Below, in pieces: positions 3,813 to 37,050 of a stretch of 37,050 bases of DNA. How positions within the stretch are numbered: position 1 is the first letter of the stretch; each line of letters begins with the position of its first letter. Source of the stretch: a virus; IMG/VR virus record IMGVR_UViG_3300017613_000255, one strand, 5' to 3'. The translations under genes were made by a program, and so were the position numbers. The notes under the pieces were generated by a model. The model ran no database searches. It was not told where the DNA came from and was given only the letters and a program-made list of their open reading frames with translations.

Positions 3813-3823
3813 AAGGGGGAGAG

Positions 3824-4177: not shown

Positions 4178-4191
4178 TAGGGGGTGCAATA

Positions 4192-4743: not shown

Positions 4744-4744
4744 T

Positions 4745-6042: not shown

Positions 6043-6251
6043 CAGTTGAGGAACACTTTGGATTGAGTGAGGAAGAAGCGTTTGGGTGTATATATGCAAC
6101 ACTAAAAACTATTGACCATTTCCTGGATAAGGGAATACACGATCCGAGAAGAATAGAGATGTTAAGGTCATATAAGGGTTTATTCAAAACATTGGATGCT
6201 ATTGAAGATGGACAGAGCCACCTTAGAGCAACATTGCATAAAAGTGATTAA
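6039..6251 (+). CDS. Hypothetical small helical protein
   Basis: 70-aa ORF with an ATGA overlap onto the previous stop. Confidence 0.5.
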   Translation: MTVEEHFGLSEEEAFGCIYATLKTIDHFLDKGIHDPRRIEMLRSYKGLFKTLDAIEDGQSHLRATLHKSD

Positions 6252-6546
6252 AGAAGAACTTATATGTATTAGGAAAAAATACGAAGGGCAGAATTTCTCT
6301 ACAAGTGTTATTACTGATGATGAGGTAACATTAGACACAAAGATTAACAGCACACCTTTTGTTGATTCATTAGATGCTCTTGCGATATGGATGGCCATAG
6401 AACTTCATTTTACGGATTATGGGTATACAGGTGGTGGGAAAGAAGATAGGTTATATTCAAAGATAGCCGGTGTAGGCACAGTAAGAGATGCAGTAGATTT
6501 AATAGAGAGATATTTACCAAATGGCGGCAGTAATAATCCACAATGA
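6196..6546 (+). CDS. Acyl/peptidyl carrier protein-like protein (start uncertain: 6196, 6208 or 6241)
   Basis: [18 protein letters not shown] matches the carrier-protein core [18 protein letters not shown]. The candidate phosphopantetheine Ser codon is at 6367..6369. Flanking helices ([27 protein letters not shown]) are in the ACP order. Confidence 0.5.
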   Translation: [116 protein letters not shown]

Positions 6547-7561
6547 CCTGGCTTCAAAAGAAATAACCGTTCCCTTAACCACAGGTGCGCAAACCATAGA
6601 TTTAAGTTCTTTGTTAGAGCATGACGATCCCAAGATAGTTGTTATTGTGGGAACGAATACAGTAACAGGTGTTATGGGTGTTTACCCTGTTGGCTCTTTA
6701 ATGGCATTTAAGACAAGAAATCATATTGCTAACAGCACAATGATTTCACCTAGTTCTTTGAATGGAAGCAACCAGGTTGTAATACATAAGACAGCGGCAA
6801 CACAGAAGTTCTATTTACATGCAGAGTTTGGTGGTGATAGCGTAACAGCACACTCTGATGGTGTGGCCTGTTCTTATACAGCGAACACATGGACAAAGAA
6901 CCTCTTGTCAGGTGGTGGTGATGGTGAGTTCGCTATTACAAGAACTCATTTCAATAATGGCGGCAATTGGGGTTGCAGATCGCTTAACAGCGTGAATCCT
7001 AATACAGCACAGCCGAACCAATCACATGATTGGGGTGTTGTTAAAGTTCAGAATGACGGAACGAATAATGTTTACTGGACATACCAAAACAGGTCAGGCA
7101 AGACACCTACTAGGCAGGTTTACATCTATGAGATGGGTTATATGTCATCTGATTGTGGATGGAATCACATGGAAGATGATGTCGATGAGGTGGTAACAAC
7201 TGTAGGGAGTTGGGATCAGGAAGGCATTACTGGAACATCCCTGGAAGGGAATGATAGTGCTGATGCAGATATAGCATTAATGCATATTGACAATGCCAAT
7301 TCTTCAAACAGGGATGCTTGGGTTAGAGAGATTAGTGGGAGTGAGGCAACTAAGAAGTTCCCTAACAATGCAGGTAGGAGAGTATTAGCAAGTATAACAG
7401 CAAGTGAGTATGAGTATTATATATCACATATAGATGTCAATAATTATGTGCAAGGGTTCTTTATAGCACCGGCTGTAACAGGGGTGGATGTATCTAATAT
7501 AAGTGGGTATTGCAGGTTGGAAGAACCAACAACATCAGATAGACTAAGAACTAAGGAGTAG
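6521..7561 (+). CDS. Hypothetical beta-rich protein, Gly/Asn/Thr-rich; possible structural or binding protein
   Basis: 346-aa ORF. No enzymatic motif recognised. Confidence 0.6.
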   Translation: MAAVIIHNDLASKEITVPLTTGAQTIDLSSLLEHDDPKIVVIVGTNTVTGVMGVYPVGSLMAFKTRNHIANSTMISPSSLNGSNQVVIHKTAATQKFYLHAEFGGDSVTAHSDGVACSYTANTWTKNLLSGGGDGEFAITRTHFNNGGNWGCRSLNSVNPNTAQPNQSHDWGVVKVQNDGTNNVYWTYQNRSGKTPTRQVYIYEMGYMSSDCGWNHMEDDVDEVVTTVGSWDQEGITGTSLEGNDSADADIALMHIDNANSSNRDAWVREISGSEATKKFPNNAGRRVLASITASEYEYYISHIDVNNYVQGFFIAPAVTGVDVSNISGYCRLEEPTTSDRLRTKE

Positions 7562-7563
7562 TT

Positions 7564-7815
7564 ATGCCTTTAAGAACAATAATGGCTGAAGCAATTAAGT
7601 TAATACCATCTGGAATTATTATTACTGCCCTTATATTTGGTGGCAAAGAGATTATTACTAATGATAGAAGAAATACAGATGAACATACTGAAATCAGGGC
7701 AGATAATCATGTAACAAAGGAGATAGTAACCAGGATTGATGCTAGGCAGGAAATGATGATAGAGAATGTAAAAGAACAGAAAGATACATTAAGAAGAATT
7801 GAACAGAAGTTATGA
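7564..7815 (+). CDS. Small membrane-anchored coiled-coil protein
   Basis: N-terminal TM segment (IKLIPSGIIITALIFGG) followed by a charged helix. SD AAGGAG lies before the ATG. Confidence 0.6.
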   Translation: MPLRTIMAEAIKLIPSGIIITALIFGGKEIITNDRRNTDEHTEIRADNHVTKEIVTRIDARQEMMIENVKEQKDTLRRIEQKL

Positions 7816-8051
7816 AACAAGCTGACTTCTTACATATGATTTCTAAATCTGTATATGAATTAAGTCAGATTGCCAAAGATGCCAGAGAGAACAACCAAGA
7901 ATTTAAGAGAGTTATATTGGAAAGAGAAAAGATAATCAATAAGTCATTAGAGCATTTAGAGCATGTATACAAGATGTTGGATTTGTCAGCTACATATTTT
8001 CCTGAAAAGGATAATGGTGAACAGATTTGCAAAAACGATATCTTCAAGTAG
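7812..8051 (+). CDS. Small coiled-coil protein
   Basis: ATGA overlap with the previous stop. 79 aa, helical and charged. Confidence 0.55.
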   Translation: MKQADFLHMISKSVYELSQIAKDARENNQEFKRVILEREKIINKSLEHLEHVYKMLDLSATYFPEKDNGEQICKNDIFK

Positions 8052-8218
8052 CAGAGCATGAATTGAATAACATCAAGACAATTCAACAGGTATTAAGGCA
8101 TCATATTGAGAAATTAGATAATAAGATCACAAATTTAGAAGCACTTATCAAGGGGGAGTATAATGAAACAGCAATTTCTGAAAGAGAAAACAGGCACAAT
8201 TCGCCTGACAGCATATGA
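8027..8218 (+). CDS. Small coiled-coil ORF in the -1 frame relative to 7812..8051 (weak TTG start; may be a frameshift extension)
   Basis: It fills an otherwise non-coding 112-nt gap. No convincing SD is present. It begins at CAAAAAC in the end of the previous ORF. Confidence 0.3.
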   Translation: MQKRYLQVAEHELNNIKTIQQVLRHHIEKLDNKITNLEALIKGEYNETAISERENRHNSPDSI

Positions 8219-9065
8219 GAATAATAGACCTCTAATACCTGCTGATAGTGTAAAAATCACTCTTTACAAGCCGGATGGTGCTACATTACAGGCCCAGGCA
8301 AGTGCTTCTAGGGATGCTACAACAGGAGAGATGACTTATTCAATTACAGCTACCCACACAGCTACAAAGGATCTGAATTACAAAGCCACTTGGGAATATA
8401 CCATTAGTGGTGAAACAAGGTATGAGGATCAGTTGTTTGATGTAGTCTTGAGTATTCTGTCAATACCTATTACAGATGATGATCTATACAATGAGTTGAA
8501 CTCATTGAGGAAAACTCAGATACAGGATACATCAACAGCAACAGCCGGTGCGGCAGGAACATTGACAGATACAGCACAGAGGAAAGAAGCAGATGATTAT
8601 TGGAATGGTGGCACAATTGAGATTATAGGTGGCACAGGGCCGAACCAGATGAGAGATATTACTGACTTTGTGCAGTCAACAGGTGTTATTTCAGTAACAC
8701 CTAACTGGGCAACTAATCCTGACAATACAAGCAGGTATAGGATTATAAGGTCTTGGAGTAAACAGATCACACAGAGTTTTGAGAAGATAGAAACTATGTT
8801 ACTCAATAAGGGCAAAAGGCATTCTTTGATCTTGGAGAGTAGCGAGATTAAAGTTCCGTTGATATACCTTACTGTGCATTTTATTTGTCTTGATTTGATG
8901 GATGAACCTGATGACAAGTGGCATATGCTAGGTAATAGGTATTGGGAACTGTTTAATGATGCATTTAATGGGATGAGATTACAGTATGATGAGGATGAGA
9001 GTGGGTTCATACAGGGTGATGAAGAAGGGTATGGTGCGGCACAGATACGGATAGGAAGGGCATGA
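8163..9065 (+). CDS. Putative virion structural protein (possible head-tail adaptor or neck protein with an N-terminal Ig-like beta-sandwich)
   Basis: SD AAGGGGGAG lies before the ATG. N-terminal pattern ITLYKPDGATL...TGEMTYSITATH...YKATWEY. Position at the start of the head-tail joining block. The family call is tentative. Confidence 0.35.
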   Translation: MKQQFLKEKTGTIRLTAYENNRPLIPADSVKITLYKPDGATLQAQASASRDATTGEMTYSITATHTATKDLNYKATWEYTISGETRYEDQLFDVVLSILSIPITDDDLYNELNSLRKTQIQDTSTATAGAAGTLTDTAQRKEADDYWNGGTIEIIGGTGPNQMRDITDFVQSTGVISVTPNWATNPDNTSRYRIIRSWSKQITQSFEKIETMLLNKGKRHSLILESSEIKVPLIYLTVHFICLDLMDEPDDKWHMLGNRYWELFNDAFNGMRLQYDEDESGFIQGDEEGYGAAQIRIGRA

Positions 9066-9805
9066 GGTTATCTGTTAATATCCTTAATTGGAACTGCAAG
9101 AATGTTCTTAAAGATACCCTTGAGGTTTTAGAAACCGAGTGCTTTGACAATGACTTTGAGGTTATTGTGGTGGACAATGGCTCAAAGGATGGCAGTATAG
9201 AGTTCTTGAAGGGAAAGCAGAAGGTGTGGGTAAATGACAATCTTCACATCATCAGTAACAGAAAAAATCTTGGAATTTCTAAGGGGAAGAATCAGGGTAT
9301 TGAGAAATCTATTGGTGATTATGTTCTTTTACTTGATGCTGATGTGTTACCTGTAAAGAATAGCATCTTTATGCTGATGGATTACTTGGATCACCATGAT
9401 GAGTGCCAAACAATAGGGTTCAAACCTAACAAGTGGCAGAACCAAAAGAATACTGAGCATTGTAAGTTCCATGAAGATTACTGCCACACATTGTTTGAGC
9501 CAAGAACACAGAAAGCGGCTTGTTTGTTCTATGGGATGTATAGAAGATGGCTGTTTGATATGGGGTTGAGGTTGAGGGAAGATGGTGTGTTTGGTGAGGT
9601 AGGGTATGGATGGGAAGATCATGATTTTTACTTGACTATGAAAGAGATGGGGGTAGACCAATGGGTTGCCCACATGAACAAAGCCAATGGAAGATATTAC
9701 CATGCTATCAACTCATCTATTAACAACTATGGGTGTATGGGAAAGAATAAGTATCAGGAAACATCAAAGGCAAGAGGGATTGCATTTCACAAATCATGGG
9801 ATTAG
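9062..9805 (+). CDS. Family 2 (GT-A) glycosyltransferase
   Basis: Motifs LSVNILNWNC...FEVIVVDNGSKDGS...NLGISKGKNQG...YVLLLDADV (DxD). ATGA overlap with the upstream structural gene. Confidence 0.8.
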   Translation: MRLSVNILNWNCKNVLKDTLEVLETECFDNDFEVIVVDNGSKDGSIEFLKGKQKVWVNDNLHIISNRKNLGISKGKNQGIEKSIGDYVLLLDADVLPVKNSIFMLMDYLDHHDECQTIGFKPNKWQNQKNTEHCKFHEDYCHTLFEPRTQKAACLFYGMYRRWLFDMGLRLREDGVFGEVGYGWEDHDFYLTMKEMGVDQWVAHMNKANGRYYHAINSSINNYGCMGKNKYQETSKARGIAFHKSWD

Positions 9806-22057: not shown

Positions 22058-22085
22058 TTGACAGTATGGTTTAATTTGTTAAAAT
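22058..22085 (+). promoter_or_regulatory. Sigma70-type promoter P2 (TTGACA, 16 nt, TGtTAAAAT)
   Basis: Consensus -35 at 22058..22063. Extended -10 at 22077..22085. It starts 5 nt after the exonuclease stop. Confidence 0.7.
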
Positions 22086-22090
22086 ATTAG

Positions 22091-22179
22091 ACATGAAAAA
22101 GTGGGGGAACTAAAGTGTCGGTAAAAATAAAACAAAAAGAATGAATAGAAATAGCCAAGACAAGTGTCTTGGTTTTTTT
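22091..22179 (+). ncRNA. Candidate small RNA of about 89 nt, or terminated leader transcript from P2
   Basis: The predicted start is about 7 nt after the -10 and the transcript would end at the intrinsic terminator 22155..22179. It contains no SD-preceded ORF. Confidence 0.4.
22155..22179 (+). terminator. Intrinsic terminator (CCAAGAC-AAGT-GTCTTGG followed by T7)
   Basis: Perfect 7-bp stem, tetraloop and seven Ts, read directly. Confidence 0.75.
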
Positions 22180-23408: not shown

Positions 23409-23733
23409 GCCACAGCCAATTGAGCCGCCACCTGATGAGTTGGTTAGCTATCGCAATTCCACTCAATATGCAAAGGATAAAGCTATTGATGCAGGGTTTT
23501 TTCAGCAACAGTTCATAGAAGCATATCTTGACAAGAAATGGAAAGCTGAGTTGTATAACAGAGATACATTGATTTGGTTATGCACAATATACAAGGAAGA
23601 AGTGGATCATGAGAAATTAGATAAGATAAGAAAGAAGGCAGATGAGTTTAAGTCGTTCATTAACAGGTATAATCATCCGTATAGGGCATTAATATTTGAT
23701 TATAGAAAATATGGCATATGGCAAATTACATAA
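23365..23733 (+). CDS. Hypothetical protein (alternative start 23395)
   Basis: ATG at 23365 after AAGGAAG, in the frame of listed ORF 23272. Confidence 0.5.
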   Translation: MEKPQSLFSVMTNRKPQPIEPPPDELVSYRNSTQYAKDKAIDAGFFQQQFIEAYLDKKWKAELYNRDTLIWLCTIYKEEVDHEKLDKIRKKADEFKSFINRYNHPYRALIFDYRKYGIWQIT

Positions 23734-24059
23734 GGTTCAAGAAGAACAAATTTAATGCTGTTAGATCAAAATGCAAGAGTGGGCATTATCATCCAAGCAA
23801 GTTAGAAGCAGGGTATTGCGACCATCTCTTACACCTCAAAAAAAATAAACAGATCAAAGATTATGAAATCCAAAAGAAATTTGCATTTGCTGTCAATAGC
23901 ATCCATATATGCAACCATTATGTTGATTTCCTGGTGCATACAAATAGTGGTTCTATTGAGGTGCATGAAACAAAAGGCAGGGAAACTGATTTGTGGAGAA
24001 TAAAGCACCGGCTGTTCAAAGCTATTTATGAAGATATACCATACTATATAGTCAAATGA
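23718..24059 (+). CDS. DUF1064-type PD-(D/E)XK endonuclease (putative recombination or junction-resolving nuclease)
   Basis: SKLEAGYCDHLLHLKKNKQIKDYEIQKKF...YVDFLVH...IEVHETKGRETDLWRIKHRLF. Confidence 0.65.
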   Translation: MANYIRFKKNKFNAVRSKCKSGHYHPSKLEAGYCDHLLHLKKNKQIKDYEIQKKFAFAVNSIHICNHYVDFLVHTNSGSIEVHETKGRETDLWRIKHRLFKAIYEDIPYYIVK

Positions 24060-24094
24060 TTAAATGGAAGAAAAAGAGGGGTGGCAGGAGAAAG

Positions 24095-24208
24095 GTGAGT
24101 AAGAAACATATCTGGAGAAAATTACCAATCCCTAAATCAAGTGGATGCTGTTATGTATATTGCCGGAGTGCCACAGGAGCAAGTTACCTACAGAATGTGA
24201 TGAGATGA
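24095..24208 (+). CDS. Possible 37-aa Cys-rich peptide ORF (GTG start), not in the supplied track
   Basis: AGGAG lies 4 nt before the GTG. The stop overlaps the ATG at 24205 (ATGA). Sequence ...SSGCCYVYCRS.... Confidence 0.25.
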   Translation: MSKKHIWRKLPIPKSSGCCYVYCRSATGASYLQNVMR

Positions 24209-24906
24209 AAAGAAAAGCATTAGCTATATGTCCATCAAGGCAAAGGGTTGAAATGTGCAGAATTATGTGCAGTTCATTCTTAGAAACCAGGCATGATACT
24301 GATTTGGTGCTTGTGATTGATGAGGATGATCCACAGTATAGTGAATATCTTGACCTGTGTTTTTCTAATCCAATTCTCTACTATGTAAATAACAAATCTA
24401 TAAACATGACATACACACAGATGCTTAATCATCAATACTTAAGTTATCCACACTATGAGTATTACCATATAACCAATGATGATTTTGTATATTTCACAGA
24501 TGGGTGGGATAGGCGGTTTATCCAGGTGCTAAGGGATTATGGTTCCGGTGTGGCTTATGGGAATGATCTATACATGGGAAGGAATCTGCCAACAGCACCC
24601 TTCATCTCAGCAGAGGTAGTTCGTGCATTAGGTTGGGTTCAATTGCCTACTCTCACTCATTTGTGTGGTGATATGGTATGGAAGGTCATTGGTGAGGGGT
24701 TGGAATCTATCTACTACTTGAAAGATGTGATCATAGAGCATAAGCATCCTCTTGTGAACAAAGCACCTAAAGATGTGATATTTGAGAAAACCAATAGCAA
24801 GGAGATGTATTCTAATGACAATGCGGCTTTCAGGCATTGGGTATTGAATGACTCACATGATGATATAGAAAGGATCAAGAAGTATGGTGCTGATTTGGAA
24901 GTGTGA
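24205..24906 (+). CDS. GT-A-like glycosyltransferase (alternative ATG at 24145)
   Basis: ALAICPSRQR...DLVLVIDEDDP...ITNDDFVYFTDGWD...IIEHKH gives a beta1-SR start, acidic DxD-like motifs and a C-terminal His. Confidence 0.5.
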   Translation: MKRKALAICPSRQRVEMCRIMCSSFLETRHDTDLVLVIDEDDPQYSEYLDLCFSNPILYYVNNKSINMTYTQMLNHQYLSYPHYEYYHITNDDFVYFTDGWDRRFIQVLRDYGSGVAYGNDLYMGRNLPTAPFISAEVVRALGWVQLPTLTHLCGDMVWKVIGEGLESIYYLKDVIIEHKHPLVNKAPKDVIFEKTNSKEMYSNDNAAFRHWVLNDSHDDIERIKKYGADLEV

Positions 24907-25078
24907 TACCTGTGGGAAACCTGCTGATTACAAGTCAGGGAAAGAGTTCTTTTGCTTGGAGCATTGGGAGATACATTTAGGTCATAAAGACACGATTGAG
25001 AGCCGGAACAGGGCAGATGGTTATGAAACAGGTGTTCCTGGCTCTAAACCACCAAAGAATGCAAATGAAGGGCAATAG
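24884..25078 (+). CDS. Small zinc-ribbon-like protein
   Basis: CDTC...CLEH pattern in 64 aa. Confidence 0.4.
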   Translation: MVLIWKCDTCGKPADYKSGKEFFCLEHWEIHLGHKDTIESRNRADGYETGVPGSKPPKNANEGQ

Positions 25079-25086
25079 GATCAGCT

Positions 25087-25911
25087 ATGAGAGATAAAAT
25101 TAAGGTTAGTTTGATAGCATCAAGTGTAAGACCCCAATTATATGAAGATTTCTTTAAATCTCTAAAAGGCACAAGTGTTGAATATGAGGTTGTGTTTGTG
25201 GGTAATATTGATTTAAGGAATCCTGCGTTAAAGGAGCAAATTGAGTGTGAGGTGTATTGCGAGTATAGTAAAGAAACAATTTATTTTGGTAATCATTGGA
25301 AGTATATCAGGACAAAGAATATAAAACCTGCCCAATGTTACGAGATCGCAAGAAGAAATGCTGTTGGAGAAACCATTGTGTGGGTTGCCGATGATTGTGA
25401 GTTTCCTAATGATGTGATAGGCAAGGCATACACATATTGGAAGGCATCCAAGAATAATAAGTTGATTTTATCCATCCAAACCAAAGAGTCAGGGTATAAC
25501 TTACCACAAGGGCAGTTCTTTGATATGACAAAGCACCGGCTTCATGCTTACAAAATGGAAACACCCTTGATGGCTCCGCTTGGTATGATGAGCAGGAAAT
25601 TCTTAGATGAGTTGGGTGGGTTTGACAAGCGTTTCGTGTGTGGACAATATGAGAACCAAGTTGTGGTGAGAGCCATGAAGAAGGGTGGATATGTTGTGAT
25701 TTTTGGTGGTGAGAAATGTTATGTAGATATTGACCATCTTGGCAAATCACTCAGGATCAGTGAATCTGTCAATGAAAAAGATTTCTTAAATAGACCTTTT
25801 GCCAAAGGGTATCAGAAAGACAGGGAAATCCTGATGCTTGAAGATTTCCAACCTTATGAGGATAAGGATATATTGACTAAATCACAGTCGCATAAAGGGG
25901 TGTGGGATTGA
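25087..25911 (+). CDS. GT-A / family 2-like glycosyltransferase
   Basis: KVSLIASSVRPQLYEDFFKSL...YEVVFVGN...IVWVADDCEF...LGGFDKRF. Confidence 0.65.
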   Translation: MRDKIKVSLIASSVRPQLYEDFFKSLKGTSVEYEVVFVGNIDLRNPALKEQIECEVYCEYSKETIYFGNHWKYIRTKNIKPAQCYEIARRNAVGETIVWVADDCEFPNDVIGKAYTYWKASKNNKLILSIQTKESGYNLPQGQFFDMTKHRLHAYKMETPLMAPLGMMSRKFLDELGGFDKRFVCGQYENQVVVRAMKKGGYVVIFGGEKCYVDIDHLGKSLRISESVNEKDFLNRPFAKGYQKDREILMLEDFQPYEDKDILTKSQSHKGVWD

Positions 25912-25912
25912 A

Positions 25913-26056
25913 ATGGAGAATTTAGTGAAATATTTTATGGTTTTTCTTATTGCATATTCTTTGATTGAGATTTTTGTTTTTGGTAATTCGTATTTAATAT
26001 TTTTATTATCATATTGCAGTTTTGTATTTTATGCAGAGTGGATACATGATAAGTAA
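25913..26056 (+). CDS. Possible 47-aa two-TM hydrophobic peptide, not in the supplied track
   Basis: MENLVKYFMVFLIAYSLIEIFVFGNSYLIFLLSYCSFVFYAEWIHDK. It fills the AT-rich gap between two island genes. The SD is weak. Confidence 0.3.
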   Translation: MENLVKYFMVFLIAYSLIEIFVFGNSYLIFLLSYCSFVFYAEWIHDK

Positions 26057-27023
26057 TATTTTAATCACAGGTATAACAGGATCAGGTGGTTCTTACCTTG
26101 CCGATTACATCTTAGAAAACCATCCTGACATTGGTGTGCATGGCATCTGCCGGTGGCACAGCACATCAAGGTTGGATAACATTGAACATATTAAAGATAA
26201 CATTCACATCCATGAGTGTGATCTTTTGGATGTATCATCCATAATCAGAGTATTACAAGTTGTGAAACCATATCGCATATTCCACTTAGCGGCTTATGCC
26301 AATGTAAAGAAATGCTTTGACACTCCACTTGCAGTTGTAAATAACAATATCATGGGAACAGCGAACCTACTTGAAGCAATCCGTTTATCTTGCCCTGATG
26401 CGATTGTTCAAATATGTTCGACATCTGAGGTCTATGGCAATCCTAAAACTGTTCCCATGTATGAAGATCATCCACTTCAACCTGTGAATCCGTATTCTGT
26501 TTCCAAGTTAGCACAGGAGAAGTTGGCTTACGCATATCACCAGAGTTGGGGGTTGAATGTTATCATCACAAGGATGTTTGCTTATATCAACCCAAGAAGG
26601 CATGATTTATTTGCCACAGCATTTGCTAGGCAGGTGGCAAGAATGGAACATTATTTTGGTGGTAGGGTTATTAAGCATGGTAATCTTTCATCAGTAAGAA
26701 CCTTGATTGATGTGAGGGATGCGATGAGATCATATTGGTTAGCTTGTGATTGGTGTGTTCCTGGTGAAGCATATAATATTGGTGGGAAAGAGGTATTATC
26801 AGTCGGAACTTTCCTCACAAAGTTGATAGAACACGCATCAACAAATATGATTCCTGTTTTAGATAAGGGTTTGTTAAGACCTATTGATGTAACCAACCAA
26901 GTAGCCAATACTGAGAAGTTTGATAAACTCACAGGGTTTAAACCAAAATACACACTTGATGAAAGCATTGAGTTTTTACTAGAGCATTGTAGGAAGGAGA
27001 TCAATGAAACTAGATACAAATAA
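26046..27023 (+). CDS. Extended SDR nucleotide-sugar enzyme, GDP-mannose 4,6-dehydratase / GDP-4-keto-6-deoxymannose reductase (Rmd)-like (alternative start 26031)
   Basis: ILITGITGSGGSYLADYILE (Rossmann fold), CSTSEVYG, NPYSVSKLAQE (YxxxK), FARQVARME...GNLSSVRTLIDVRDAMRSY resembles the Rmd sequence as I recall it. Confidence 0.75.
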   Translation: MISNILITGITGSGGSYLADYILENHPDIGVHGICRWHSTSRLDNIEHIKDNIHIHECDLLDVSSIIRVLQVVKPYRIFHLAAYANVKKCFDTPLAVVNNNIMGTANLLEAIRLSCPDAIVQICSTSEVYGNPKTVPMYEDHPLQPVNPYSVSKLAQEKLAYAYHQSWGLNVIITRMFAYINPRRHDLFATAFARQVARMEHYFGGRVIKHGNLSSVRTLIDVRDAMRSYWLACDWCVPGEAYNIGGKEVLSVGTFLTKLIEHASTNMIPVLDKGLLRPIDVTNQVANTEKFDKLTGFKPKYTLDESIEFLLEHCRKEINETRYK

Positions 27024-27693
27024 ACCTGTTTTTATTTTAGCACATGGAACATCTATCACAGAGTTGGAATCATGGATCGACCAATATAAGGATTTAGATG
27101 TTTACTGGGCATCATTCAACTATTTTATGACTACAGAAGAAATACTGAATCTGGTGGGGTTGCATACTAACATCCTATATGTTTACTGTCAGCTAGGATA
27201 TAAGATCAACAAGGAGTATTTCCTAAATTACTTTAATAGTGGTGATGATAGGGTAGCTATAATCAATAATATTGTTCACATTATGAACATTTTTCCGTCA
27301 TTAAAAGAGTCCTACAAGACAAAGATGCTTGTGTGGAATACTAATGTTAATGGTGGAACATTGATGAACTTCATGGTTACTCTGATGCAGATAGGGTTCA
27401 AGCGACTTTGCTTGTTTGGTGTAGATGGGTATGGTGATGGAGTGAGAACTCATTATAAACAATCCTATAGAGCAAAACGATTCCCTGTAGTTTTTAATAA
27501 CATCACTATTAATTTAAGTAATTATTATGATGTATTAAATATGCTGTGGACAGATACAAAGAAACTGAATAATATTGGTGGTTATTATCTTAAAGAATAT
27601 AAGAATGTAGAGATTAATAATTGTAATCCTGAAAGTTTGGTTACTTGTTTTGATAAGATTAAATACAACCAAGTCAAGGAGATTTATCAATGA
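27004..27693 (+). CDS. Cst-II (GT42)-like or DUF115-like glycosyltransferase
   Basis: VFILAHGTSITELE, DLDVYWASFNYF and GGTLMNFMVTLMQIGFKRLCLFGVDGY parallel the Campylobacter Cst-II segments VIIAGNGPSLKEID, DFDVFRCNQFYF and TSGVYMCAVAIALGYKEIYLSGIDFY. Confidence 0.5.
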   Translation: MKLDTNKPVFILAHGTSITELESWIDQYKDLDVYWASFNYFMTTEEILNLVGLHTNILYVYCQLGYKINKEYFLNYFNSGDDRVAIINNIVHIMNIFPSLKESYKTKMLVWNTNVNGGTLMNFMVTLMQIGFKRLCLFGVDGYGDGVRTHYKQSYRAKRFPVVFNNITINLSNYYDVLNMLWTDTKKLNNIGGYYLKEYKNVEINNCNPESLVTCFDKIKYNQVKEIYQ

Positions 27694-28466
27694 AGTTATC
27701 TGTCCTAGTGCCTGGCATCAGAACCAAGAATTGGAGAAAACTCTATGATTCAGTTATAGAATCATTTAGTGGCAGTTGGGAGATGGTGATTATATCTCCC
27801 TATAAACTGCCGGATGAATTAAAGGGCAACCAGAATATCAAGATTATTGAGGATTGGGGTTCGCCTATGAGATGTCAGCAGAGAGGTTTAACACAGGCAG
27901 AGGGTGATTATGTTACATGGGCGGCTGATGATGGGGTTTACTTGCCTGGTATGCTTGACAAATCCTTTGAGTATCTTGATCGCTGTGAATATGGATGTGA
28001 TGATGCTAAGTTGGTTATGGGTAAATATACTGAAGGTGATGGCAACACAGGGCACATGATGAATGGGGATTATTATATTCTCAACAACCACAATGCTTCA
28101 AATTGTTGGTTCGTGCCTGACAACACATGGATGCTGAATGTTGGTGTAGTGCCTACAAAACTGCTTATGGAAGTTGGTGGGTGGGATTGTCAGTTTGAGG
28201 TTTGTCCTATGGCATATAATGACCTTGCTATCAGGTTGCAAAGACATGGTGTAAGATTTATTATCCAAGATGAGATTATGTATAAATGCACACATCTGCC
28301 AGGACATGAAGGGGATCATGCACCTATCCATGATGCTATGATTGAACATGATATGCCTTTGTTTAAGGAGATTTATGACAAGATAGAGAGCAGGGAGAGG
28401 ATATTTATTGAGTGGGATAATTGGGAGCAATCACCTGAGAGATGGGTTAGGAGATTTGGGGAGTGA
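27690..28466 (+). CDS. GT-A / family 2-like glycosyltransferase (paralogue-like of 25087..25911)
   Basis: LSVLVPGIRTKNWRKLYDSV...WEMVIISP...YVTWAADDGVY...VGGWDCQFE. Confidence 0.65.
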   Translation: MKLSVLVPGIRTKNWRKLYDSVIESFSGSWEMVIISPYKLPDELKGNQNIKIIEDWGSPMRCQQRGLTQAEGDYVTWAADDGVYLPGMLDKSFEYLDRCEYGCDDAKLVMGKYTEGDGNTGHMMNGDYYILNNHNASNCWFVPDNTWMLNVGVVPTKLLMEVGGWDCQFEVCPMAYNDLAIRLQRHGVRFIIQDEIMYKCTHLPGHEGDHAPIHDAMIEHDMPLFKEIYDKIESRERIFIEWDNWEQSPERWVRRFGE

Positions 28467-29335
28467 AAACATCAGGGTATTTTGATGTCCACAGATATGA
28501 GATAGCTTGTAAATACAACACACCTTTTAGGGTTGTGCCGGTTGGTGATATTCATTATGACTCACCAAACTTTGCTGATGCCAGATGGCAACATTTCTGT
28601 GAAACTGAGATGGCTTGTAAGATACCGTCATTCTATTTTCTCATGGGAGATTATATAGATTTTGCATCATCATCTGAAAGGCACATTATCAGGGGTGGGA
28701 ACTTGCATTACTCATCACTAACAACACAAGAGAAGTGGTGCAAGAGTGCAATCAAGAAACTTGTGAAGGATGCACCATTCTTAAAAGGCAGAACAATAGC
28801 TGTTCTTAATGGCAACCATTACCTAGATTTTATGGATGGCACAAACTCAGATCAATACCTGGCAGGGTTGTTGGAAACTAAATACTTAGGGGTTGCAGGG
28901 TTTGTCCGGCTGTTGATTAAAAGAGATGCAACACACTCATTGAAGTATGATATGTTCGCACATCATGGAAAGACAGGTGCAAGTAAGGCATCATCAATAA
29001 GGGCGGTCAATAATCTTATACTATCACATCAGGCAGATTGTTATTTAATGGGCCATAACCATGACATCACAGCAGGGAAAGTTGATCGCCTTTATTTATC
29101 TGACTCAAGGAATGTTGATACTCTCAAGGTTAAGAACCGGCAGATTGCTTTAGTCAGGACAGGTTCTTTCTTAAAAACATGGCAACCAGGCAAGGTCAGC
29201 TATGGGGTGGACAGGTGCTATGTTCCTGCAACTATTGGTATCAGCTATCTCACAATAGTTCCCAAGAGAACATCTTATATGTTAGGCAAAAGAAGGTTGG
29301 AAGAACTGACTATTGAGGTGGATATTACAATATGA
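28463..29335 (+). CDS. Calcineurin-like metallophosphoesterase
   Basis: All five motifs are present in order: GDIHYD, MGDYIDF, NGNHY, HHGKTG, MGHNHD. GTG start overlaps the previous stop (GTGA). Confidence 0.8.
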   Translation: MKTSGYFDVHRYEIACKYNTPFRVVPVGDIHYDSPNFADARWQHFCETEMACKIPSFYFLMGDYIDFASSSERHIIRGGNLHYSSLTTQEKWCKSAIKKLVKDAPFLKGRTIAVLNGNHYLDFMDGTNSDQYLAGLLETKYLGVAGFVRLLIKRDATHSLKYDMFAHHGKTGASKASSIRAVNNLILSHQADCYLMGHNHDITAGKVDRLYLSDSRNVDTLKVKNRQIALVRTGSFLKTWQPGKVSYGVDRCYVPATIGISYLTIVPKRTSYMLGKRRLEELTIEVDITI

Positions 29336-30114
29336 ACATTCTTTCATTTGGTGGTGGTGTGCAAACAGTAGCTATGGCATTGATGTGTATTAATGGGGAT
29401 TTGCCTATGCCTGATTATTCTGTTTTCTCCGATCCTGGGTGGGAGTTAGAAGATACCTATAAATACCTGAGTTGGTTTATTCCTTACTGTGAGGATAAGG
29501 GTATGAGGTTCAGGGTTGTTGAGAATGGAAACATCAAGAAAGATGCTTTGAATAGAGATAGAAAGTGGGTAACAATGCCGCTATTCACAAAGGATGAGAA
29601 TGACAAGGCAGGGATGTTAATGCGACAATGCACAAATGATTATAAGATTATACCTGTGTATAAAATGGTGAGAAAGTTGTTAGGTTTGAAACCATATCAG
29701 AGAACAAAAGAACCTGCAAATGTTTGGCTAGGGATTTCCATTGATGAAGCCACTAGGATGAAACCTAGCAGGGTGGGGTATGCCATTAACATATATCCAT
29801 TGATTGAGAATAACATCAGCAGGGCAAAGTGCATTACATATATACAAACAATGGGATTTCACTTACCACCTAAATCTGCTTGTGTTGGATGCCCATATCA
29901 TAGTGATATGTTTTGGCAATCATTAAAGACAGGTTATCCATTAGAGTTTAGTGATGCTGTTGATTTTGATATTAAGATAAGACACAACTCAAGGAAAGGC
30001 ATTAAATCACCAATGTATTTACATAGGAGTTGCCAACCACTAGAGGATGTTGATTTCACTCAAGGGCAGATGGATTTGTTTCAGGAAGAATGTGAGGGGT
30101 ATTGTGGCTTGTGA
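29332..30114 (+). CDS. PAPS reductase / adenine-nucleotide alpha-hydrolase-like protein with a C-terminal Cys cluster
   Basis: ILSFGGGVQTVAM (PP-loop variant), RQCTNDYKIIPV, SACVGCPYHSD, ECEGYCG. Confidence 0.65.
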   Translation: MNILSFGGGVQTVAMALMCINGDLPMPDYSVFSDPGWELEDTYKYLSWFIPYCEDKGMRFRVVENGNIKKDALNRDRKWVTMPLFTKDENDKAGMLMRQCTNDYKIIPVYKMVRKLLGLKPYQRTKEPANVWLGISIDEATRMKPSRVGYAINIYPLIENNISRAKCITYIQTMGFHLPPKSACVGCPYHSDMFWQSLKTGYPLEFSDAVDFDIKIRHNSRKGIKSPMYLHRSCQPLEDVDFTQGQMDLFQEECEGYCGL

Positions 30115-30507: not shown

Positions 30508-30646
30508 ACTACCCAAACTAAGCCATGATGATAGAATGGTGCTTTTAAGAACCAAGATGCTCCTGGCATGTTACCGGCATTTGGTTAGGAGAGAGGAATT
30601 GCCCTTGATTGATGAGTTTGATGAGTTTGTGGAGAGGCATACATGA
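30488..30646 (+). CDS. Small 52-aa ORF, translationally coupled to the methyltransferase gene, not in the supplied track
   Basis: The ATG lies 5 nt after GAGGAA. The stop overlaps the ATG at 30643 (ATGA). It fills the 135-nt gap. Confidence 0.45.
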   Translation: MEKGKIELPKLSHDDRMVLLRTKMLLACYRHLVRREELPLIDEFDEFVERHT

Positions 30647-31263
30647 AGGTGCTGAACTTATATGCAGGGATTGGCGGCAATAGAAAGCTATGGGAAGATG
30701 TTGAGGTTACTGCTGTGGAGATCAATCCTAAGATCGCAGGGATATACCAGGATTTCTTCCCTCAAGACAAGATGGTGATTGGTGATGCACACCAGTATTT
30801 GCTTGAGCATTTTGGGGAGTTTGAGTTCATTTGGTCATCTCCACCTTGTCCTACACATAGCAGAATCAACATAGGTGTTATGGGGGTAGATAGTAAATAC
30901 TCAAGTGGGAATCCATATAAATATCCTGATATGGCATTGTATCAACAGGTAATACTTCTAAAGCAGTTTTGCAAAACAAAATATTGTGTTGAAAATGTTA
31001 TCCCATACTATAAACTACTGATACCTGCAACAGAGGTGGATAATCATTTGTTCTGGACTAACTTTGCTATTGGGAGTTTCCCAAAGGGGTGCAGAGAACA
31101 TTATGGAAGTATGGGAGAGTTGTCAATGGCTAAAGGTTTTGATTTGTCAAGTTATGGGAATATTGATAAAAGAAAGGTTCTAAGAAATTGTGTAAATCCG
31201 CACCTGGGGTTGCATATTCTCAATGAATCAAAAAGGAGTGTTTACCCTGAGTTATTTAGGTGA
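30643..31263 (+). CDS. Miniature C5-cytosine methyltransferase-like protein (206 aa)
   Basis: Motif I LNLYAGIGG, motif IV SSPPCPTHS, motif VI CVENV, motif X-like LRNCVNP. Only about 60 aa lie between ENV and the C-terminal motif. Confidence 0.6.
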   Translation: MKVLNLYAGIGGNRKLWEDVEVTAVEINPKIAGIYQDFFPQDKMVIGDAHQYLLEHFGEFEFIWSSPPCPTHSRINIGVMGVDSKYSSGNPYKYPDMALYQQVILLKQFCKTKYCVENVIPYYKLLIPATEVDNHLFWTNFAIGSFPKGCREHYGSMGELSMAKGFDLSSYGNIDKRKVLRNCVNPHLGLHILNESKRSVYPELFR

Positions 31264-31276
31264 TGTGAAAAAATAC

Positions 31277-31306
31277 TTGACATAAACTAATATATATGCT
31301 TATAAT
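31277..31306 (+). promoter_or_regulatory. Sigma70-type promoter P3 (TTGACA, 18 nt, TATAAT)
   Basis: Both hexamers are perfect consensus. The inverted repeat CTTATAA-T-TTATAAG (31299..31313) overlaps the -10. Confidence 0.7.
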
Positions 31307-31341
31307 TTATAAGATCATTCCCTGTGGGGGTGGTCTTTTTT

Positions 31342-36539: not shown

Positions 36540-37050
36540 ATGAATTGGTTTTTAAGATTGATCCAAAAGTTACAAAGCAATAAGGGTATGGCAAATGAAA
36601 CTACTACAACAACTATGGAAGAAGCTATCCCTACAGTTGTTGAAGCATGTTTACTTGAATTGGATGATGGAGATATTATCAAGCCATTGGTTAGGAATGT
36701 AGCATTCCCTGGCCCTGGTATTGTGCATGATACTCCGTTCATTACAAGATTGACCTCTGAAACAGACAGCAACTTAGCTAACCAGGCACTTGACACAAGT
36801 GGTAGTGATGAAACATCACCTAGCCAAGCAACAGTCGGTGCTCATGGTGCGACTGTGTTGCTCAAGCCATTAGCTGTTATGGGTTCTGTTAGTGATCTAG
36901 CAGTTGCGGCAGGTCAGTTAATCGGACAATGTTTAGCAGTAAGGCGAGATTTAGATCTTGCAACATTGTTTGCTAGTTTTACACCGAATCAAGGTGATGC
37001 AAATGAGGACATTGTAGTTGCTGATCTTTATGCGGCATACAAGGAGTTAA
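36540..37050 (+). CDS. Major capsid protein, N-terminal portion (runs off the window end and continues at 122..522)
   Basis: ATG after AAAGGAG with no stop to the end of the window. It is in phase with 37..522 through the duplicated 121 nt. Confidence 0.75.
   Translation, partial: MNWFLRLIQKLQSNKGMANETTTTTMEEAIPTVVEACLLELDDGDIIKPLVRNVAFPGPGIVHDTPFITRLTSETDSNLANQALDTSGSDETSPSQATVGAHGATVLLKPLAVMGSVSDLAVAAGQLIGQCLAVRRDLDLATLFASFTPNQGDANEDIVVADLYAAYKEL
36930..37050. repeat. Terminal direct duplication, copy 2 (identical to 1..121)
   Basis: Exact 121-nt match read directly. Confidence 0.9.

Follow-up and report, generated by a model that had tools for sequence, protein, structure and literature searches.

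A conserved glycosyltransferase island, most likely a cytoplasmic glycan-assembly module, in uncultured siphophages

Background

Chloroviruses and mimiviruses encode sets of sugar-nucleotide SDRs, glycosyltransferases (GTs) and O-methyltransferases, and the GMD, GMER and A064R proteins of chlorovirus PBCV-1 and the mimivirus fibril glycan clusters are the known examples of giant-virus glycan machinery. In giant viruses the GT-A transferases and the rhamnose O-methyltransferase are cytoplasmic, and act on the virion. The GMD-family SDR of PBCV-1 is reported to be bifunctional, yielding GDP-D-rhamnose, and some GMDs of bacteria and of viruses are likewise reported to have both activities. Phages encode GT2-type enzymes also in serotype conversion, as in the GtrABC systems or in the case of the prophage enzyme TarP, which modifies wall teichoic acid. 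Closer to the locus described here are the mycobacteriophages Che8 (gp108-110), Corndog (gp38) and Myrna, for which virion glycosylation is documented (Freeman et al. 2023, as summarized in PMC12363180 and PMC12619734). Phages may also glycosylate their DNA, and the known pathways require either a ThyA-type 5hm/5ho-pyrimidine synthase, or a C5-MT together with a 5mYOX/TET enzyme (PMC13326640; 10.1101/2023.12.21.572611). DSL-LC06, a metagenome-assembled phage from Dishui Lake, has been assigned to the 'Nanhuiviridae' (PMC10611076).

Results

The window, that is, the whole stretch of DNA analysed (IMGVR_UViG_3300017613_000255, 37,050 nt), is the complete genome of an uncultured phage. As it carries a 121-bp terminal repeat, the unique genome amounts to 36,929 bp. 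The region 24205-28466 encodes three GTs (GTa, GTb and GTc), a Zn-ribbon protein, an SDR and an MptE-like protein, plus a 47-aa ORF. All these ORFs lie on the + strand, and the positions given for them by a sequence-only reading stand. A further GT2 gene is found at 9062.

9062..9805, + strand: canonical soluble GT2 with DAD motif (PF00535, 4e-22)
24205..24906, + strand: GTa, soluble GT-A-fold glycosyltransferase (phrog_14945, AF2, Foldseek)
24884..25078, + strand: Zn-ribbon protein (CxxC...CxxH), overlapping the GTa stop by 23 nt
25087..25911, + strand: GTb, divergent GT2-like GT-A glycosyltransferase with WVADDCEF motif (sub-threshold PF00535, homology to GTc)
25913..26056, + strand: 47-aa hydrophobic ORF in the 134-nt GTb-SDR spacer, not conserved
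26046..27023, + strand: extended SDR of the GDP-sugar 4,6-dehydratase/4-reductase family (PF16363, PDB 7us5)
27004..27693, + strand: MptE-like/DUF115-like Rossmann protein with HGxS...FGxDG...NCxP motifs (family profile, AF2/Foldseek)
27690..28466, + strand: GTc, divergent GT2-like GT-A glycosyltransferase with WAADDG motif (sub-threshold PF00535, family profile)

Profile and structure searches agree with reading the island as a module for glycan synthesis, made of three GT-A enzymes and a GMD/Rmd-family SDR, accompanied by a separate GT2. The share of the genome devoted to glycans, previously put at about 14%, was computed as 13.7% (5,066 of 36,929 bp, island plus 9062 gene). Transmembrane segments are missing in all the island enzymes and in the 9062 GT2, which are therefore soluble. 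Neighbouring genes overlap by 4-23 nt throughout 23718-30114. The island is preceded by a RusA-like resolvase gene, and followed by a run of metallophosphoesterase-like, PAPS-reductase-like, short C5-MTase-like and ParB-N6/N4 MTase genes, to the first of which GTc is translationally coupled. Matches to consensus promoters and terminators, which are weak evidence, place the island in a putative middle operon (22.2-31.3 kb) holding also replication and DNA-modification genes, and not in the late operon. Two other genes of the phage are surface-directed as judged by eye, p797 carrying a signal peptide and p183 a lipoprotein-like signal.

GTa matches phrog_14945 'glycosyltransferase' (4.7e-35). 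Its ORF is open from 24145, and homologues favour the start at 24205 (alignment A3, 29 sequences), in which the NDD motif (N91 D92 D93) and E178-H179 are invariant or almost so. The AF2 model (pLDDT 95.6) retrieved from PDB with Foldseek GT-A/GT2 enzymes (probability 1.00, E 7e-9), among which PcManGT, WrtF, SpsA and TarP. Top matches in BFVD are GT2s of phages and giant viruses (TM 0.87-0.89), and the nearest viral structures are Pas34 of phiAsp2 and a mimivirus GT2 (TM 0.89). In Pas34 a GTa-like domain is fused to an O-methyltransferase, and the phiAsp2 GT cluster directly follows the tail genes. The label 'DNA methyltransferase' attached to phrog_2675/Pas34 goes back to a depositor note which reads O-methyltransferase. 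The Zn-ribbon protein, which in Pfam has just a weak match to HscB_4_cys (0.086), is on sequence grounds a conserved partner of GTa, its N-terminal 35 aa being kept directly 3' of GTa in related loci (L002-L006, L012-L014; 1e-11 to 1e-3).

As single sequences, GTb (17.6 bits, 0.0038) and GTc (17.9 bits, 0.0031) score below the PF00535 cut-off of 23.3 bits. GTc matches phrog_1721 (0.0012), and the profile of its family (A4) finds in PDB the GT2 enzymes TarS, 9jma and SpsA (8.6e-4 to 2.8e-3). GTb and GTc match each other in BLASTP (4e-10), and comparison of the GTb (A5) and GTc (A4) families by hhalign (probability 98.6%, E 1e-15) indicates that they are homologous; GTb is, as judged from these alignments, a distant paralogue of GTc. 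All three GT-like ORFs of the island could thus be assigned a GT-A fold, as the sequence-only reading had supposed. GTb orthologues (35-63% identity) occur in L001, L005, L007, L008 and L012-L015. The GTc family comprises >185 protein clusters, for a few of which a PF00535 match had been precomputed; their contigs measure 35-45 kb, and none of these clusters comes from a cultured phage.

The SDR had been described as GMD/Rmd-like, and the searches bear this out: it matches PF16363 (5e-65) and, over its full length, 7us5, the C. jejuni GDP-D-glycero-D-manno-heptose 4,6-dehydratase (3e-54), followed in PDB by Rmd 2pk3 (1e-42) and GMD 1db3 (8e-33). It carries the motifs GITGSGGS, STSEVYG, PYSVSK and NPRRHD, and has in common with 7us5 the S/T-x-E, YxxxK and PRR motifs and the 'RW' loop. 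Its score against the NCBIfam gmd equivalog is 136 bits (cut-off 415), and it lies under every NCBIfam equivalog cut-off. Orthologues in relatives are 62-77% identical. In contrast with the GDP-6-deoxy-heptose and GDP-D-rhamnose pathways (7us5, 2pk3, 1db3), the locus encodes neither a 4-ketoreductase nor a partner 4-reductase or epimerase for the predicted SDR, which makes the final sugar uncertain. SDR and GTc are adjacent in L005, L007, L012, L022 and L024. Since the start of GTc overlaps the SDR stop in most related loci, GTc probably transfers the SDR product.

The protein at 27004 had been taken for a Cst-II/DUF115-like transferase, which holds at the level of a remote superfamily, and no closer. 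As a single sequence it has no match in Pfam, PHROG or PDB; its family (217 representatives) has weak ties to MptE-like/DUF115 proteins and Cst-type sialyltransferases. PF01973 is matched by five of 65 members (best 4e-4), and the family profile finds in PDB 8sd5 (0.011) and, full length, the Cst-like sialyltransferase 9c08 (0.086). With the AF2 model (pLDDT 90) Foldseek gives 8sd5 (probability 0.99), SteA (0.98) and ST6GALNAC2 (0.63), yet E values are 0.01-0.06 and TM about 0.4. In cellular homologues fusions with GT2, PS_pyruv_trans, methyltransferase or TPR domains are seen, and the protein may be a fifth transferase. Among related loci its gene is accessory, being found just in the window and in L001. 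The ORF at 25913, read before as a possible two-TM peptide, has a Kyte-Doolittle 19-residue maximum of 2.04. Over the related loci tblastn found no homologue (best E 0.22), and in L001 the SDR directly follows GTb. Having no counterpart in relatives, it is doubtful as a gene, and probably is not one. The assignment of the 9062 ORF to GT2 is secured by PF00535 (79 bits, cut-off 23.3). The gene lies inside the head-tail module, directly after that of a 300-aa protein (8163-9065); the pair recurs in L012 (57% and 43% identity), and in L005 the equivalent slot is filled by a small secreted protein, and is thus variable.

GTa, Zn-ribbon, GTb, SDR and GTc make up a conserved core, found directly upstream of TerS/TerL in L005, L007, L012, L013 and L022/L023 (TerL 63-69% identical). 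The core-bearing clade consists of uncultured siphophages with genomes of about 37-39 kb. It is aquatic or environmental, with hosts probably among Pseudomonadota, as suggested by the distant relative DSL-LC06 (PMC10611076). In L005, L007 and L012 TerS directly follows GTc, and the downstream DNA-modification genes are outside the core. Accessory genes differ between relatives, and include MptE-like genes, extra GTc paralogues, a sugar C-methyltransferase with PF08421/PF08484 (L008) and a Methyltransf_24/RMNT_CmcI rhamnosyl-O-methyltransferase-like gene (L014). In the contigs L024 and L025 the SDR-GTc pair is part of a sugar locus of polysaccharide type, at least 18 kb long, and in L024 it is adjoined by a gene with a MannoseP_isomer domain, consistent with GDP-mannose supply. 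L008 and L015-L018, phages whose structural genes are unrelated, also bear the island. The N-terminus of the major capsid protein features a conserved Thr run (M-A-N-E-TTTTT) in all five island-bearing relatives.

Essentially every ORF of at least 100 aa of the window was scanned with Pfam and PHROG. No integrase was found, as already noticed, and a search of 185,579 species genomes returned one island locus, on a phage-like contig in a MAG. Lack of integrase and of prophage copies argues against classical lysogenic conversion. The Gtr set had also been reported missing, and indeed neither GtrA nor GtrC is encoded. As for the 9062 GT2, its similarity to the GtrB-like phrog_841 is confined to the N-terminal GT2 portion of that family, and it has no membrane anchor. 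The genome encodes no initiating phosphoglycosyl transferase, flippase, polymerase or ligase detectable by these scans. Neither ThyA/ThyX homologues nor TET/5mYOX enzymes were detected, in keeping with the claimed absence of a hydroxymethylase providing a base for DNA glycosylation; dNMP kinase, dCTPase and DNA polymerase are missing from the window as well.

Discussion

The island is most likely a phage-encoded, wholly cytoplasmic glycan-assembly module, in which the SDR would lead to a GDP-6-deoxy sugar and the transferases to a lineage-variable oligosaccharide. In the scheme that we infer, a host GDP-sugar, GDP-D-mannose or GDP-D-glycero-D-manno-heptose, would be converted by the SDR into its GDP-4-keto-6-deoxy derivative, and the GDP-6-deoxy sugar would be formed by the SDR itself, if bifunctional, or by a host reductase. 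GTc, in relatives translationally coupled to the SDR, would transfer this sugar, and further residues would be added, in an order which is conjectural, by GTa with its Zn-ribbon partner, GTb, the MptE-like protein and the 9062 GT2. The product would be a short oligosaccharide, differing in composition between related phages.

The acceptor is the most conjectural element of the scheme. By analogy with mycobacteriophages and chloroviruses, we tentatively favour the virion proteins of the phage, which would receive the glycan in the cytoplasm, either ahead of assembly or in the course of it. Che8 gp108-110 are encoded at the end of the genome and directly precede the terminase, as the core does in relatives, and the Thr run of the major capsid protein is a possible acceptor site, though it could be structural instead. 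Against virion proteins speak the sharing of the island with phages of unrelated structural genes, the position in the middle operon (a weak point), the secreted protein found in the 9062 slot of L005, and the lack of sequence relation to the Che8 GTs. Transfer of the island among phages whose virion genes are unrelated agrees at least equally well with an acceptor that is generic or comes from the host. Remodelling of the host envelope is possible, if on balance doubtful. According to this hypothesis, soluble GTs would act at the inner membrane face on undecaprenyl-linked O-antigen, capsule, teichoic-acid or S-layer intermediates, and the altered surface would protect from superinfection, or keep progeny from adsorbing to debris. 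Solubility or peripheral membrane attachment is found also in GT-A enzymes that use lipid-linked acceptors, and TarP, TarS, RmlT and WrtF rank high in the structure and sequence searches. Horizontal spread of the module, the polysaccharide-type locus of L024/L025 and the apparent middle-operon position point the same way, and the secreted and lipoprotein-like genes suggest that the phage invests in the host surface. Yet the genome has no enzymes to initiate, flip, polymerize or ligate a lipid-linked glycan, no Gtr set and no integrase, prophage copies are missing in the genomes searched, and we know of no lytic phage shown to rebuild a surface glycan of its host by means of several clustered GTs.

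Host flagellin, pilin or S-layer proteins, or a free glycoconjugate or metabolite serving takeover or anti-defence, are unlikely acceptors or products. The core encodes no acceptor, the Maf proteins which glycosylate flagellin belong to the MptE/DUF115 superfamily, and one cellular homologue of the 27004 protein (P0135) has TPR repeats. The MptE-like gene is however accessory, no feature of the locus indicates a particular host protein, and to our knowledge no phage system glycosylates a host protein or free conjugate of this kind. Most improbable is DNA hypermodification, with the GTs adding sugar to a modified base of the phage DNA as a protection from restriction. The island does lie between RusA-like resolvase and DNA-modification-type genes, with GTc coupled to the first of these, and phage DNA GTs of GT-A fold with partner sugar epimerases exist, TarP being their top PDB match too (10.1101/2023.12.21.572611). 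Nevertheless, the base-modifying and nucleotide enzymes listed above are missing, the DNA-modification genes fall outside the core, and a 'TET-associated glycosyltransferase' ranks only 29 among BFVD matches of GTa (TM 0.60), no closer than generic GT2s. Moreover, phages with GTa homologues are missing from the DNA-type GT-A genome list of 10.1101/2023.12.21.572611.

Virus-encoded glycan synthesis is already known; the sequence-only reading had missed that a conserved modular core is common to a large clade of uncultured phages. Giant viruses, which supply one of the nearest structures to GTa, have eukaryotic hosts, genomes >300 kb and non-orthologous proteins, whereas the present genome has 37 kb, of which the module occupies about 12-14%. 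In phage DNA glycosylation (T4 alpha/beta-GT; arabinosyl-5hoC of RB69 and DLP3, PMC13326640; MT-5mYOX-GT clusters, 10.1101/2023.12.21.572611) GTs lie near DNA methyltransferases, ParB and terminase, as here, and some have a GT-A fold or are paired with an epimerase-type SDR; the window differs in having no ThyA homologue, 5mYOX or nucleotide kinases, and GTa no specific similarity to TET-associated GTs. Serotype conversion also relies on phage-encoded GT2-type enzymes, and TarP matches the GTa structure, but GtrA, GtrC, membrane anchor, integrase and prophage copies have no counterpart here. The nearest deposited relative, DSL-LC06 (OR003941; MCP 31%, TerL 27%, portal 24% identical), is likewise a siphophage of small size in which a large set of glycan genes precedes the terminase, though these genes (heptosyltransferase-like, two GTs, KpsC-like, sialyltransferase-like, FkbM MT) are not homologous to GTa, GTb, GTc and SDR. 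Virion glycosylation by GTs of mycobacteriophage siphoviruses, as recounted in PMC12363180 and PMC12619734 (Freeman et al. 2023), corrects the notion that no target is established for this kind of phage. Mycobacteriophages have actinobacterial hosts, Che8 has no sugar-nucleotide-modifying SDR, its GTs have no detectable relation to GTa, GTb and GTc, and virion glycans, demonstrated there, are here only supposed. The likeness lies in the architecture: a siphovirus with several consecutive soluble GT-A-type transferases, a GT cluster ending the non-structural arm directly before the terminase on the circular Che8 map, and a GT-methyltransferase fusion, gp108, echoed among relatives of the window by the methyltransferase of L014 and the Pas34 fusion.

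Organization of the genome

Positions 1-121 and 36930-37050 of the window carry an exact 121-bp direct repeat; the genome is therefore complete, was assembled as a circle and measures 36,929 bp. The gene of the major capsid protein (MCP, ~36588-519) crosses the junction, so that each end of the window shows one half of it as an incomplete ORF. All genes reside on the + strand, and Pfam and PHROG matches outline the following order.

+ strand, start of the structural genes: TerS, TerL, portal, scaffold, MCP
603-8051, + strand: 7.5-kb block of unknown genes, after the MCP gene
+ strand, next: p300 (a 300-aa protein, 8163-9065), GT2 (ORF 9062), connectors, major tail protein, tape measure, Dit, Tal
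+ strand, then: small genes, Erf, exonuclease, replication initiator, RusA-type resolvase, glycosylation island (24205-28466)
+ strand, after the island: metallophosphoesterase-like, PAPS-reductase-like, short C5-MTase-like and ParB-N6/N4 MTase genes

The seven ORFs of the island were found at the positions indicated by the sequence-only reading.

24205-24906, + strand: GTa, GT-A-type glycosyltransferase
from 24884, + strand: Zn-ribbon protein
from 25087, + strand: GTb, GT-A-type glycosyltransferase
from 25913, + strand: hydrophobic ORF of 47 aa
26046-27023, + strand: SDR of the GDP-sugar 4,6-dehydratase type
from 27004, + strand: ORF 27004
from 27690, + strand: GTc, GT-A-type glycosyltransferase

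The GC content of the island (0.378) is in line with that of the remaining genome (0.391), and within 23718-30114 neighbouring genes overlap by 4-23 nt. With virtually every ORF of at least 100 aa scanned against Pfam and PHROG, neither an integrase nor a homologue of thymidylate synthase, a TET/5mYOX enzyme, a DNA polymerase or a component of Gtr was detected, and the exclusions of an integrase, a Gtr set and a hydroxymethylase made beforehand hold in these scans of the window ORFs. No tRNA genes were found in the window. By consensus matches, the island would belong to a middle operon (promoter-like 22058-22085, terminator-like 22153-22174, perfect -35/-10 at 31277-31306), the total of promoter and terminator matches in the region being no higher than shuffle expectation. 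The last of these, in 31277-31337, is a sigma-70 consensus TTGACA-18-TATAAT (12/12) located in the 60-nt gap ahead of the ParB-N6/N4 MTase gene. A terminator-like hairpin with a 12-bp stem lies directly 3' of the promoter and overlaps the GTG start at 31324, and the segment could serve the late operon as its promoter, combined with a site of attenuation or antitermination.

Two genes in 28463-30114, downstream of the island, overlap GTc and each other by 4 nt and are absent from the conserved core of the relatives. One is metallophosphoesterase-like (phrog_7339 'DNA repair exonuclease'; PF00149, 0.0011), the other PAPS-reductase-like (phrog_424, 2.5e-45; no Pfam match). The C5-MTase-like protein encoded by 30643-31263 (206 aa) matches PF00145 (motifs I-IV, 1.5e-7) just over residues 1-74; ENV-like and NxVNP-like motifs can be discerned by eye, and a sizeable target-recognition domain is lacking. 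The 603-8051 block, located between the capsid gene and p300, includes 12 ORFs, none with a Pfam or PHROG match, and is absent from two related contigs (L005, L012). It encodes a 797-aa protein (1419-3812) with a signal-peptide-like N-terminal segment and a 183-aa protein (4192-4743) with a lipoprotein-like signal, both recognized by eye, and looks like a variable region directed at the cell surface.

The phage, a JGI metagenome contig, is far from deposited genomes. The 20-32.5 kb region of the window has no megablast match among 50,697 phage records, a look-up of window proteins by exact sequence retrieved no recorded contig, and TerL is only ~30% identical to any of these 50,697 genomes. 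The nearest deposited relative is DSL-LC06 (OR003941; MCP 31%, TerL 27%, portal 24%), a phage assembled from a lake metagenome with a predicted host in Pseudomonadota (PMC10611076). Its genome of 29.8 kb consists to about one quarter of glycan genes, which lie upstream of the terminase (1732-9017) and include heptosyltransferase-like, two GT, KpsC-like, sialyltransferase-like, FkbM and other methyltransferase genes; a GNA1-like acetyltransferase gene (24979-25464) resides among the baseplate genes. These genes were considered as homologues of the island and discarded, as no homology was found. Glycan islands upstream of the terminase may be a recurrent trait of this broad group.

Enzymes encoded by the island

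Profile and structure searches identified GTa, GTb, GTc and the separate ORF 9062 as GT-A/GT2-type, as had been predicted. GTa belongs to a PHROG annotated as glycosyltransferase (E 4.7e-35); in Pfam it retrieves nothing at E <= 1, and thus falls below the PF00535 gathering threshold. An AF2 model (pLDDT 95.6), built with 28 homologues, retrieves GT2 enzymes from the PDB (Foldseek probability 1.00, E 7e-9 to 1e-6, TM ~0.6), and the top matches, PcManGT, the fucosyltransferase WrtF, SpsA, TarP and RmlT, are all GT-A/GT2. In the TNDDF motif none of the 29 homologues departs from D92 and D93, and N91 is almost invariant; an E-H pair is also invariant or nearly so. The modelled GTa has a predicted GT-A Rossmann-like fold with an acidic DxD-type motif. 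GTb and GTc score 17.6 and 17.9 bits, respectively, against a PF00535 gathering threshold of 23.3, and a precomputed PF00535 match exists for a few orthologues of GTc. The GTc family profile (A4) retrieves from the PDB TarS (5tze, 8.6e-4), 9jma (1.5e-3) and SpsA (2.8e-3). GTb and GTc match each other both in BLASTP (4e-10) and when the GTb profile (A5) is aligned with A4 (hhalign probability 98.6%, E 1e-15), and share an invariant xDD motif (D102-D103 in GTb, D80-D81 in GTc); as judged from these comparisons, they are distant paralogues. Kinship of GTa to either was rejected, since the hhalign probability is just 22%. ORF 9062 is a canonical GT2, scoring above the PF00535 gathering threshold (79.3 bits, E 4e-22). 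Neither the island enzymes nor ORF 9062 feature transmembrane segments.

Among viral proteins related to GTa is Pas34 of Actinoplanes phage phiAsp2 (28936-30726), whose N-terminal 227 aa are a GTa-type GT domain (30% identity, 4e-30), encoded in a GT cluster right after the tail genes. Pas34 is the prototype of phrog_2675, which GTa matches as well and which is labelled 'DNA methyltransferase'. The RefSeq name of Pas34 is the same, whereas the depositor's note reads putative O-methyltransferase, and the label has apparently been passed to the PHROG. A DNA-modifying role assigned to GTa by way of this label was dismissed, Pas34 being, by the depositor's note, a GT-O-methyltransferase fusion.

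The membership of the SDR in the GDP-mannose 4,6-dehydratase family (PF16363, 220 bits, E 5e-65) is, at the profile level, unambiguous. The motifs GITGSGGS, STSEVYG and PYSVSK align with those of 7us5, 1db3 and 2pk3 (Gly-rich NAD(P), S/T-x-E and YxxxK, respectively). The best PDB match, over the full length, is 7us5 (3e-54), the C. jejuni GDP-D-glycero-D-manno-heptose 4,6-dehydratase, with which the SDR shares S/T-x-E, YxxxK, PRR and the R-W loop; next come the reductase Rmd and then canonical GMDs. The SDR scores below every NCBIfam equivalog cut-off (gmd TIGR01472, 136 bits vs 415; LegB TIGR04180, 136 vs 475), and hence substrate and exact reaction are not assignable. The alternative that the SDR is an Rmd rather than a dehydratase is disfavored, though not decisively, by the PRR sequence, replaced by PGQ in Rmd, and by the R-W loop, both shared with dehydratases.

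ORF 27004 had been described as Cst-II/DUF115-like. As a single sequence it matches nothing in Pfam (E <= 1), PHROGs or PDB, and a scan of viral contigs with the protein returned no match. A full HMMER scan yielded a family of 217 representatives. PF01973 (MptE-like, formerly DUF115) is matched at E <= 0.01 by five of 65 family members (best 4e-4), all under the gathering score, and the family profile retrieves the MptE-type HPPK 8sd5 (0.011) and, over the whole length, the Cst-type alpha-2,3-sialyltransferase 9c08 (0.086). GxS and GxDG motifs of the family align with 8sd5. The structural model (pLDDT 90) retrieves in Foldseek 8sd5 (probability 0.99) and SteA (0.98), with E 0.01-0.02 and TM ~0.4, and also a sialyltransferase, at high probability, poor E and TM ~0.4. 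Homologues of cellular origin occur in fusion with a GT2, polysaccharide pyruvyl-transferase, methyltransferase or TPR domain. The description is thus plausible at the superfamily level only, and the protein may be regarded as a putative transferase.

The N-terminal half of the Zn-ribbon protein is kept right after GTa in eight related loci. The 47-aa ORF, envisaged as a possible two-TM peptide, is conserved in none of the related loci, and the spacer which holds it is missing from L001; it was rejected as a membrane component, and from sequence conservation is doubtful as a gene. Apart from this ORF and from the superfamily-level reading of ORF 27004, the initial gene assignments proved largely right.

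The observation of an island is borne out, well beyond chance expectation. The finding is virus-encoded glycan synthesis, of a known kind, built from phage-specific GT-A families. GTa and GTb/GTc are phage-specific GT-A lineages lying under the Pfam gathering threshold, and would represent new CAZy-type entries; GTc has no cultured representative. The core, made of four enzymes and the Zn-ribbon protein, is small enough for reconstitution in E. coli, whatever the acceptor.

Conservation and spread of the island

Related contigs were drawn from JGI, ENA, Logan, NCBI and IMG/VR. The order GTa-(Zn)-GTb-SDR-GTc is common to L005, L007, L012, L013 and L022/L023, and the genes lie immediately, or almost immediately, ahead of TerS/TerL; in these relatives TerL is 63-69%, and the SDR 67-70%, identical to the window homologue. 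The GTc family encompasses >185 clusters at 90% identity, all metagenomic, typically on contigs of 35-45 kb, and tblastn of GTc against cultured phages gave no match. GTa homologues (~31-33% identical) were found in ~130-kb Streptomyces phages, in 190-kb Arthrobacter phages and in pelagiphage HTVC008M. In the Streptomyces and Arthrobacter phages, as in Streptomyces phage EGole (6372-8105), the GTa homologue adjoins a second GT gene and a small cytidylyl/adenylyl-transferase gene, annotated as heptose-1-phosphate adenylyltransferase.

The scan of 185,579 prokaryotic species, one genome each, identified a single locus, on a 45-kb phage-like contig in a Saccharibacteria MAG. Island elements are therefore not common prophages, and lysogenic conversion by a prophage was rejected on this ground. 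The contig (L008/L011, CAYSDF010000001.1, 45,428 bp) comes from SRP193066, traced only to a methods paper on antibiotic resistance in manure and soil, and its placement in a 'Candidatus Saccharibacteria' bin may be either a mis-binning or a clue to the host.

Additional genes vary from one locus to the other. The MptE-like gene (ORF 27004 type) is restricted, among the loci compared, to the window and L001. L008 carries a sugar C-methyltransferase (PF08421/PF08484) and extra GTb/GTc paralogues, L014 a Methyltransf_24/rhamnosyl-O-methyltransferase-like gene and a second GTc, L016-L018 multiple GTc paralogues and different SDRs. This set of C-methyltransferase, O-methyltransferase, MptE-like and supernumerary paralogous genes suggests diversifying selection on glycan structure. 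Small Zn-ribbon/NUMOD3/HNH-like ORFs are also found between island genes in L001 (615-1013), L015 (8063-8467 and 9664-10026), L005 (2787-3236) and L013 (5481-5981), and resemble insertions of the homing-endonuclease type.

At most loci the stop of the SDR gene and the start of GTc overlap, and in L024/L025 the SDR-GTc pair lies within a sugar-biosynthesis locus spanning 18 kb or more, adjoining a gene with a mannose-phosphate-isomerase domain. The overlap and this genomic context suggest that GTc would transfer the product of the SDR, and that the donor would come from GDP-mannose.

The slot after p300, which in the window hosts ORF 9062 (8163-9805 including p300), varies as well. It is occupied by a GT2 also in L012 (segment 16737-18337), by a small secreted protein in L005 (segment 10825-11874), and the GT2 was accordingly rejected as a fixed partner of the structural module. 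p300 has a weak BppU_N-like N-terminus.

Possible acceptors of the glycan

We tentatively favor the notion that the island acts on virion proteins. Its enzymes, all of them soluble, work at the site of virion assembly. The host envelope is a possible, if somewhat less probable, acceptor. According to this hypothesis, the transferases would work in the cytoplasm while the phage grows lytically, modifying lipid-linked intermediates of the host in the manner of TarP; the movement of the module between phages whose virion genes are unrelated, polysaccharide-type contexts such as that of L024, and the other secreted or lipoprotein-like genes of the phage (recognized by eye) are in keeping with it. 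Seroconversion of the classical type is excluded, given the lack of an integrase, a Gtr set, a membrane anchor and prophage copies; ORF 9062 matches just the N-terminal GT2 part of phrog_841, and GtrA, GtrC and integrase were not found. Modification of some further acceptor is unlikely, and DNA is a very improbable target. Documented glycosylation of phage DNA requires a hydroxylated base, which originates either from a ThyA homologue working on nucleotides (PMC13326640), or from a C5-MTase together with 5mYOX/TET working on the DNA (bioRxiv 10.1101/2023.12.21.572611). Neither ThyA/ThyX homologues nor 5mYOX/TET were found in the Pfam/PHROG scans of the window ORFs, the kinases, dCTPase and polymerase typical of pre-replicative pathways are missing from the window, and the DNA-modification-type genes downstream lie outside the conserved core. 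A 'TET-associated glycosyltransferase' ranks only 29th among the BFVD matches of GTa (TM 0.60), no nearer than any GT2, and the phages hosting GTa homologues are missing from Table S4 of 10.1101/2023.12.21.572611, which lists the genomes where DNA-type GT-A enzymes occur. In the same study, a base-modifying neighbour was missing from about 65% of the phage contigs that contain a GT. Similarly improbable is a scenario in which DNA is hypermodified without a ThyA- or TET-type hydroxylase, the translationally coupled metallophosphoesterase- and PAPS-reductase-like proteins and the short C5-MTase-like protein supplying a new acceptor chemistry, and four or five transferases building a 6-deoxy-sugar oligosaccharide on the DNA.

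Virion proteins, the acceptor we favor, include a candidate substrate. The MCP of the window (36588-37050 plus 1-519) starts with M-A-N-E-TTTTT, and S/T-TTTT is found at the N-terminus of the MCP in four island-bearing relatives.

L005, 8922-9785: MCP with Thr run
L007, 15671-16564: MCP with Thr run
L012, 14859-15722: MCP with Thr run
L013, 12045-12890: MCP with Thr run

The MCP of the distant relative DSL-LC06 has no N-terminal Thr run. The stretch of four or five Thr, present in all five island-bearing phages, may be an O-glycosylation site, or may just be structural.

Comparison with known glycosylation systems

Chloroviruses and mimiviruses are, to our knowledge, the only viruses that combine a set of SDR, GT and O-methyltransferase with a known target, and they glycosylate their own particles. 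The viral structures nearest to GTa are the tail-adjacent GT-O-methyltransferase fusion of phiAsp2 and a mimivirus GT2. The statement in the sequence-only reading that no target is established for phages of this kind is outdated, since virion glycosylation is proven for mycobacteriophage Che8, according to PMC12363180 and PMC12619734. The GT genes gp108-110 of Che8 are similarly located, at the end of the non-structural arm and adjoining the terminase in the circular map, and include a GT-methyltransferase fusion. Against glycosylation of the virion, the island GTs are not homologous to those of Che8, as BLASTP and profile comparisons of GTa, GTb and GTc with gp108-110 gave nothing significant (at best 7 bits, A4 vs gp109), and the GT2 of ORF 9062 resides in a variable slot. 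If the glycan is found on virions, this would have a bearing on phage-host recognition, particle stability, and evasion of grazing or immunity. Glycosylation of phage-particle proteins would then extend beyond actinobacteriophages and giant viruses, to a large, uncultured, probably aquatic clade of small siphophages, which spend about one eighth of the genome on glycans.
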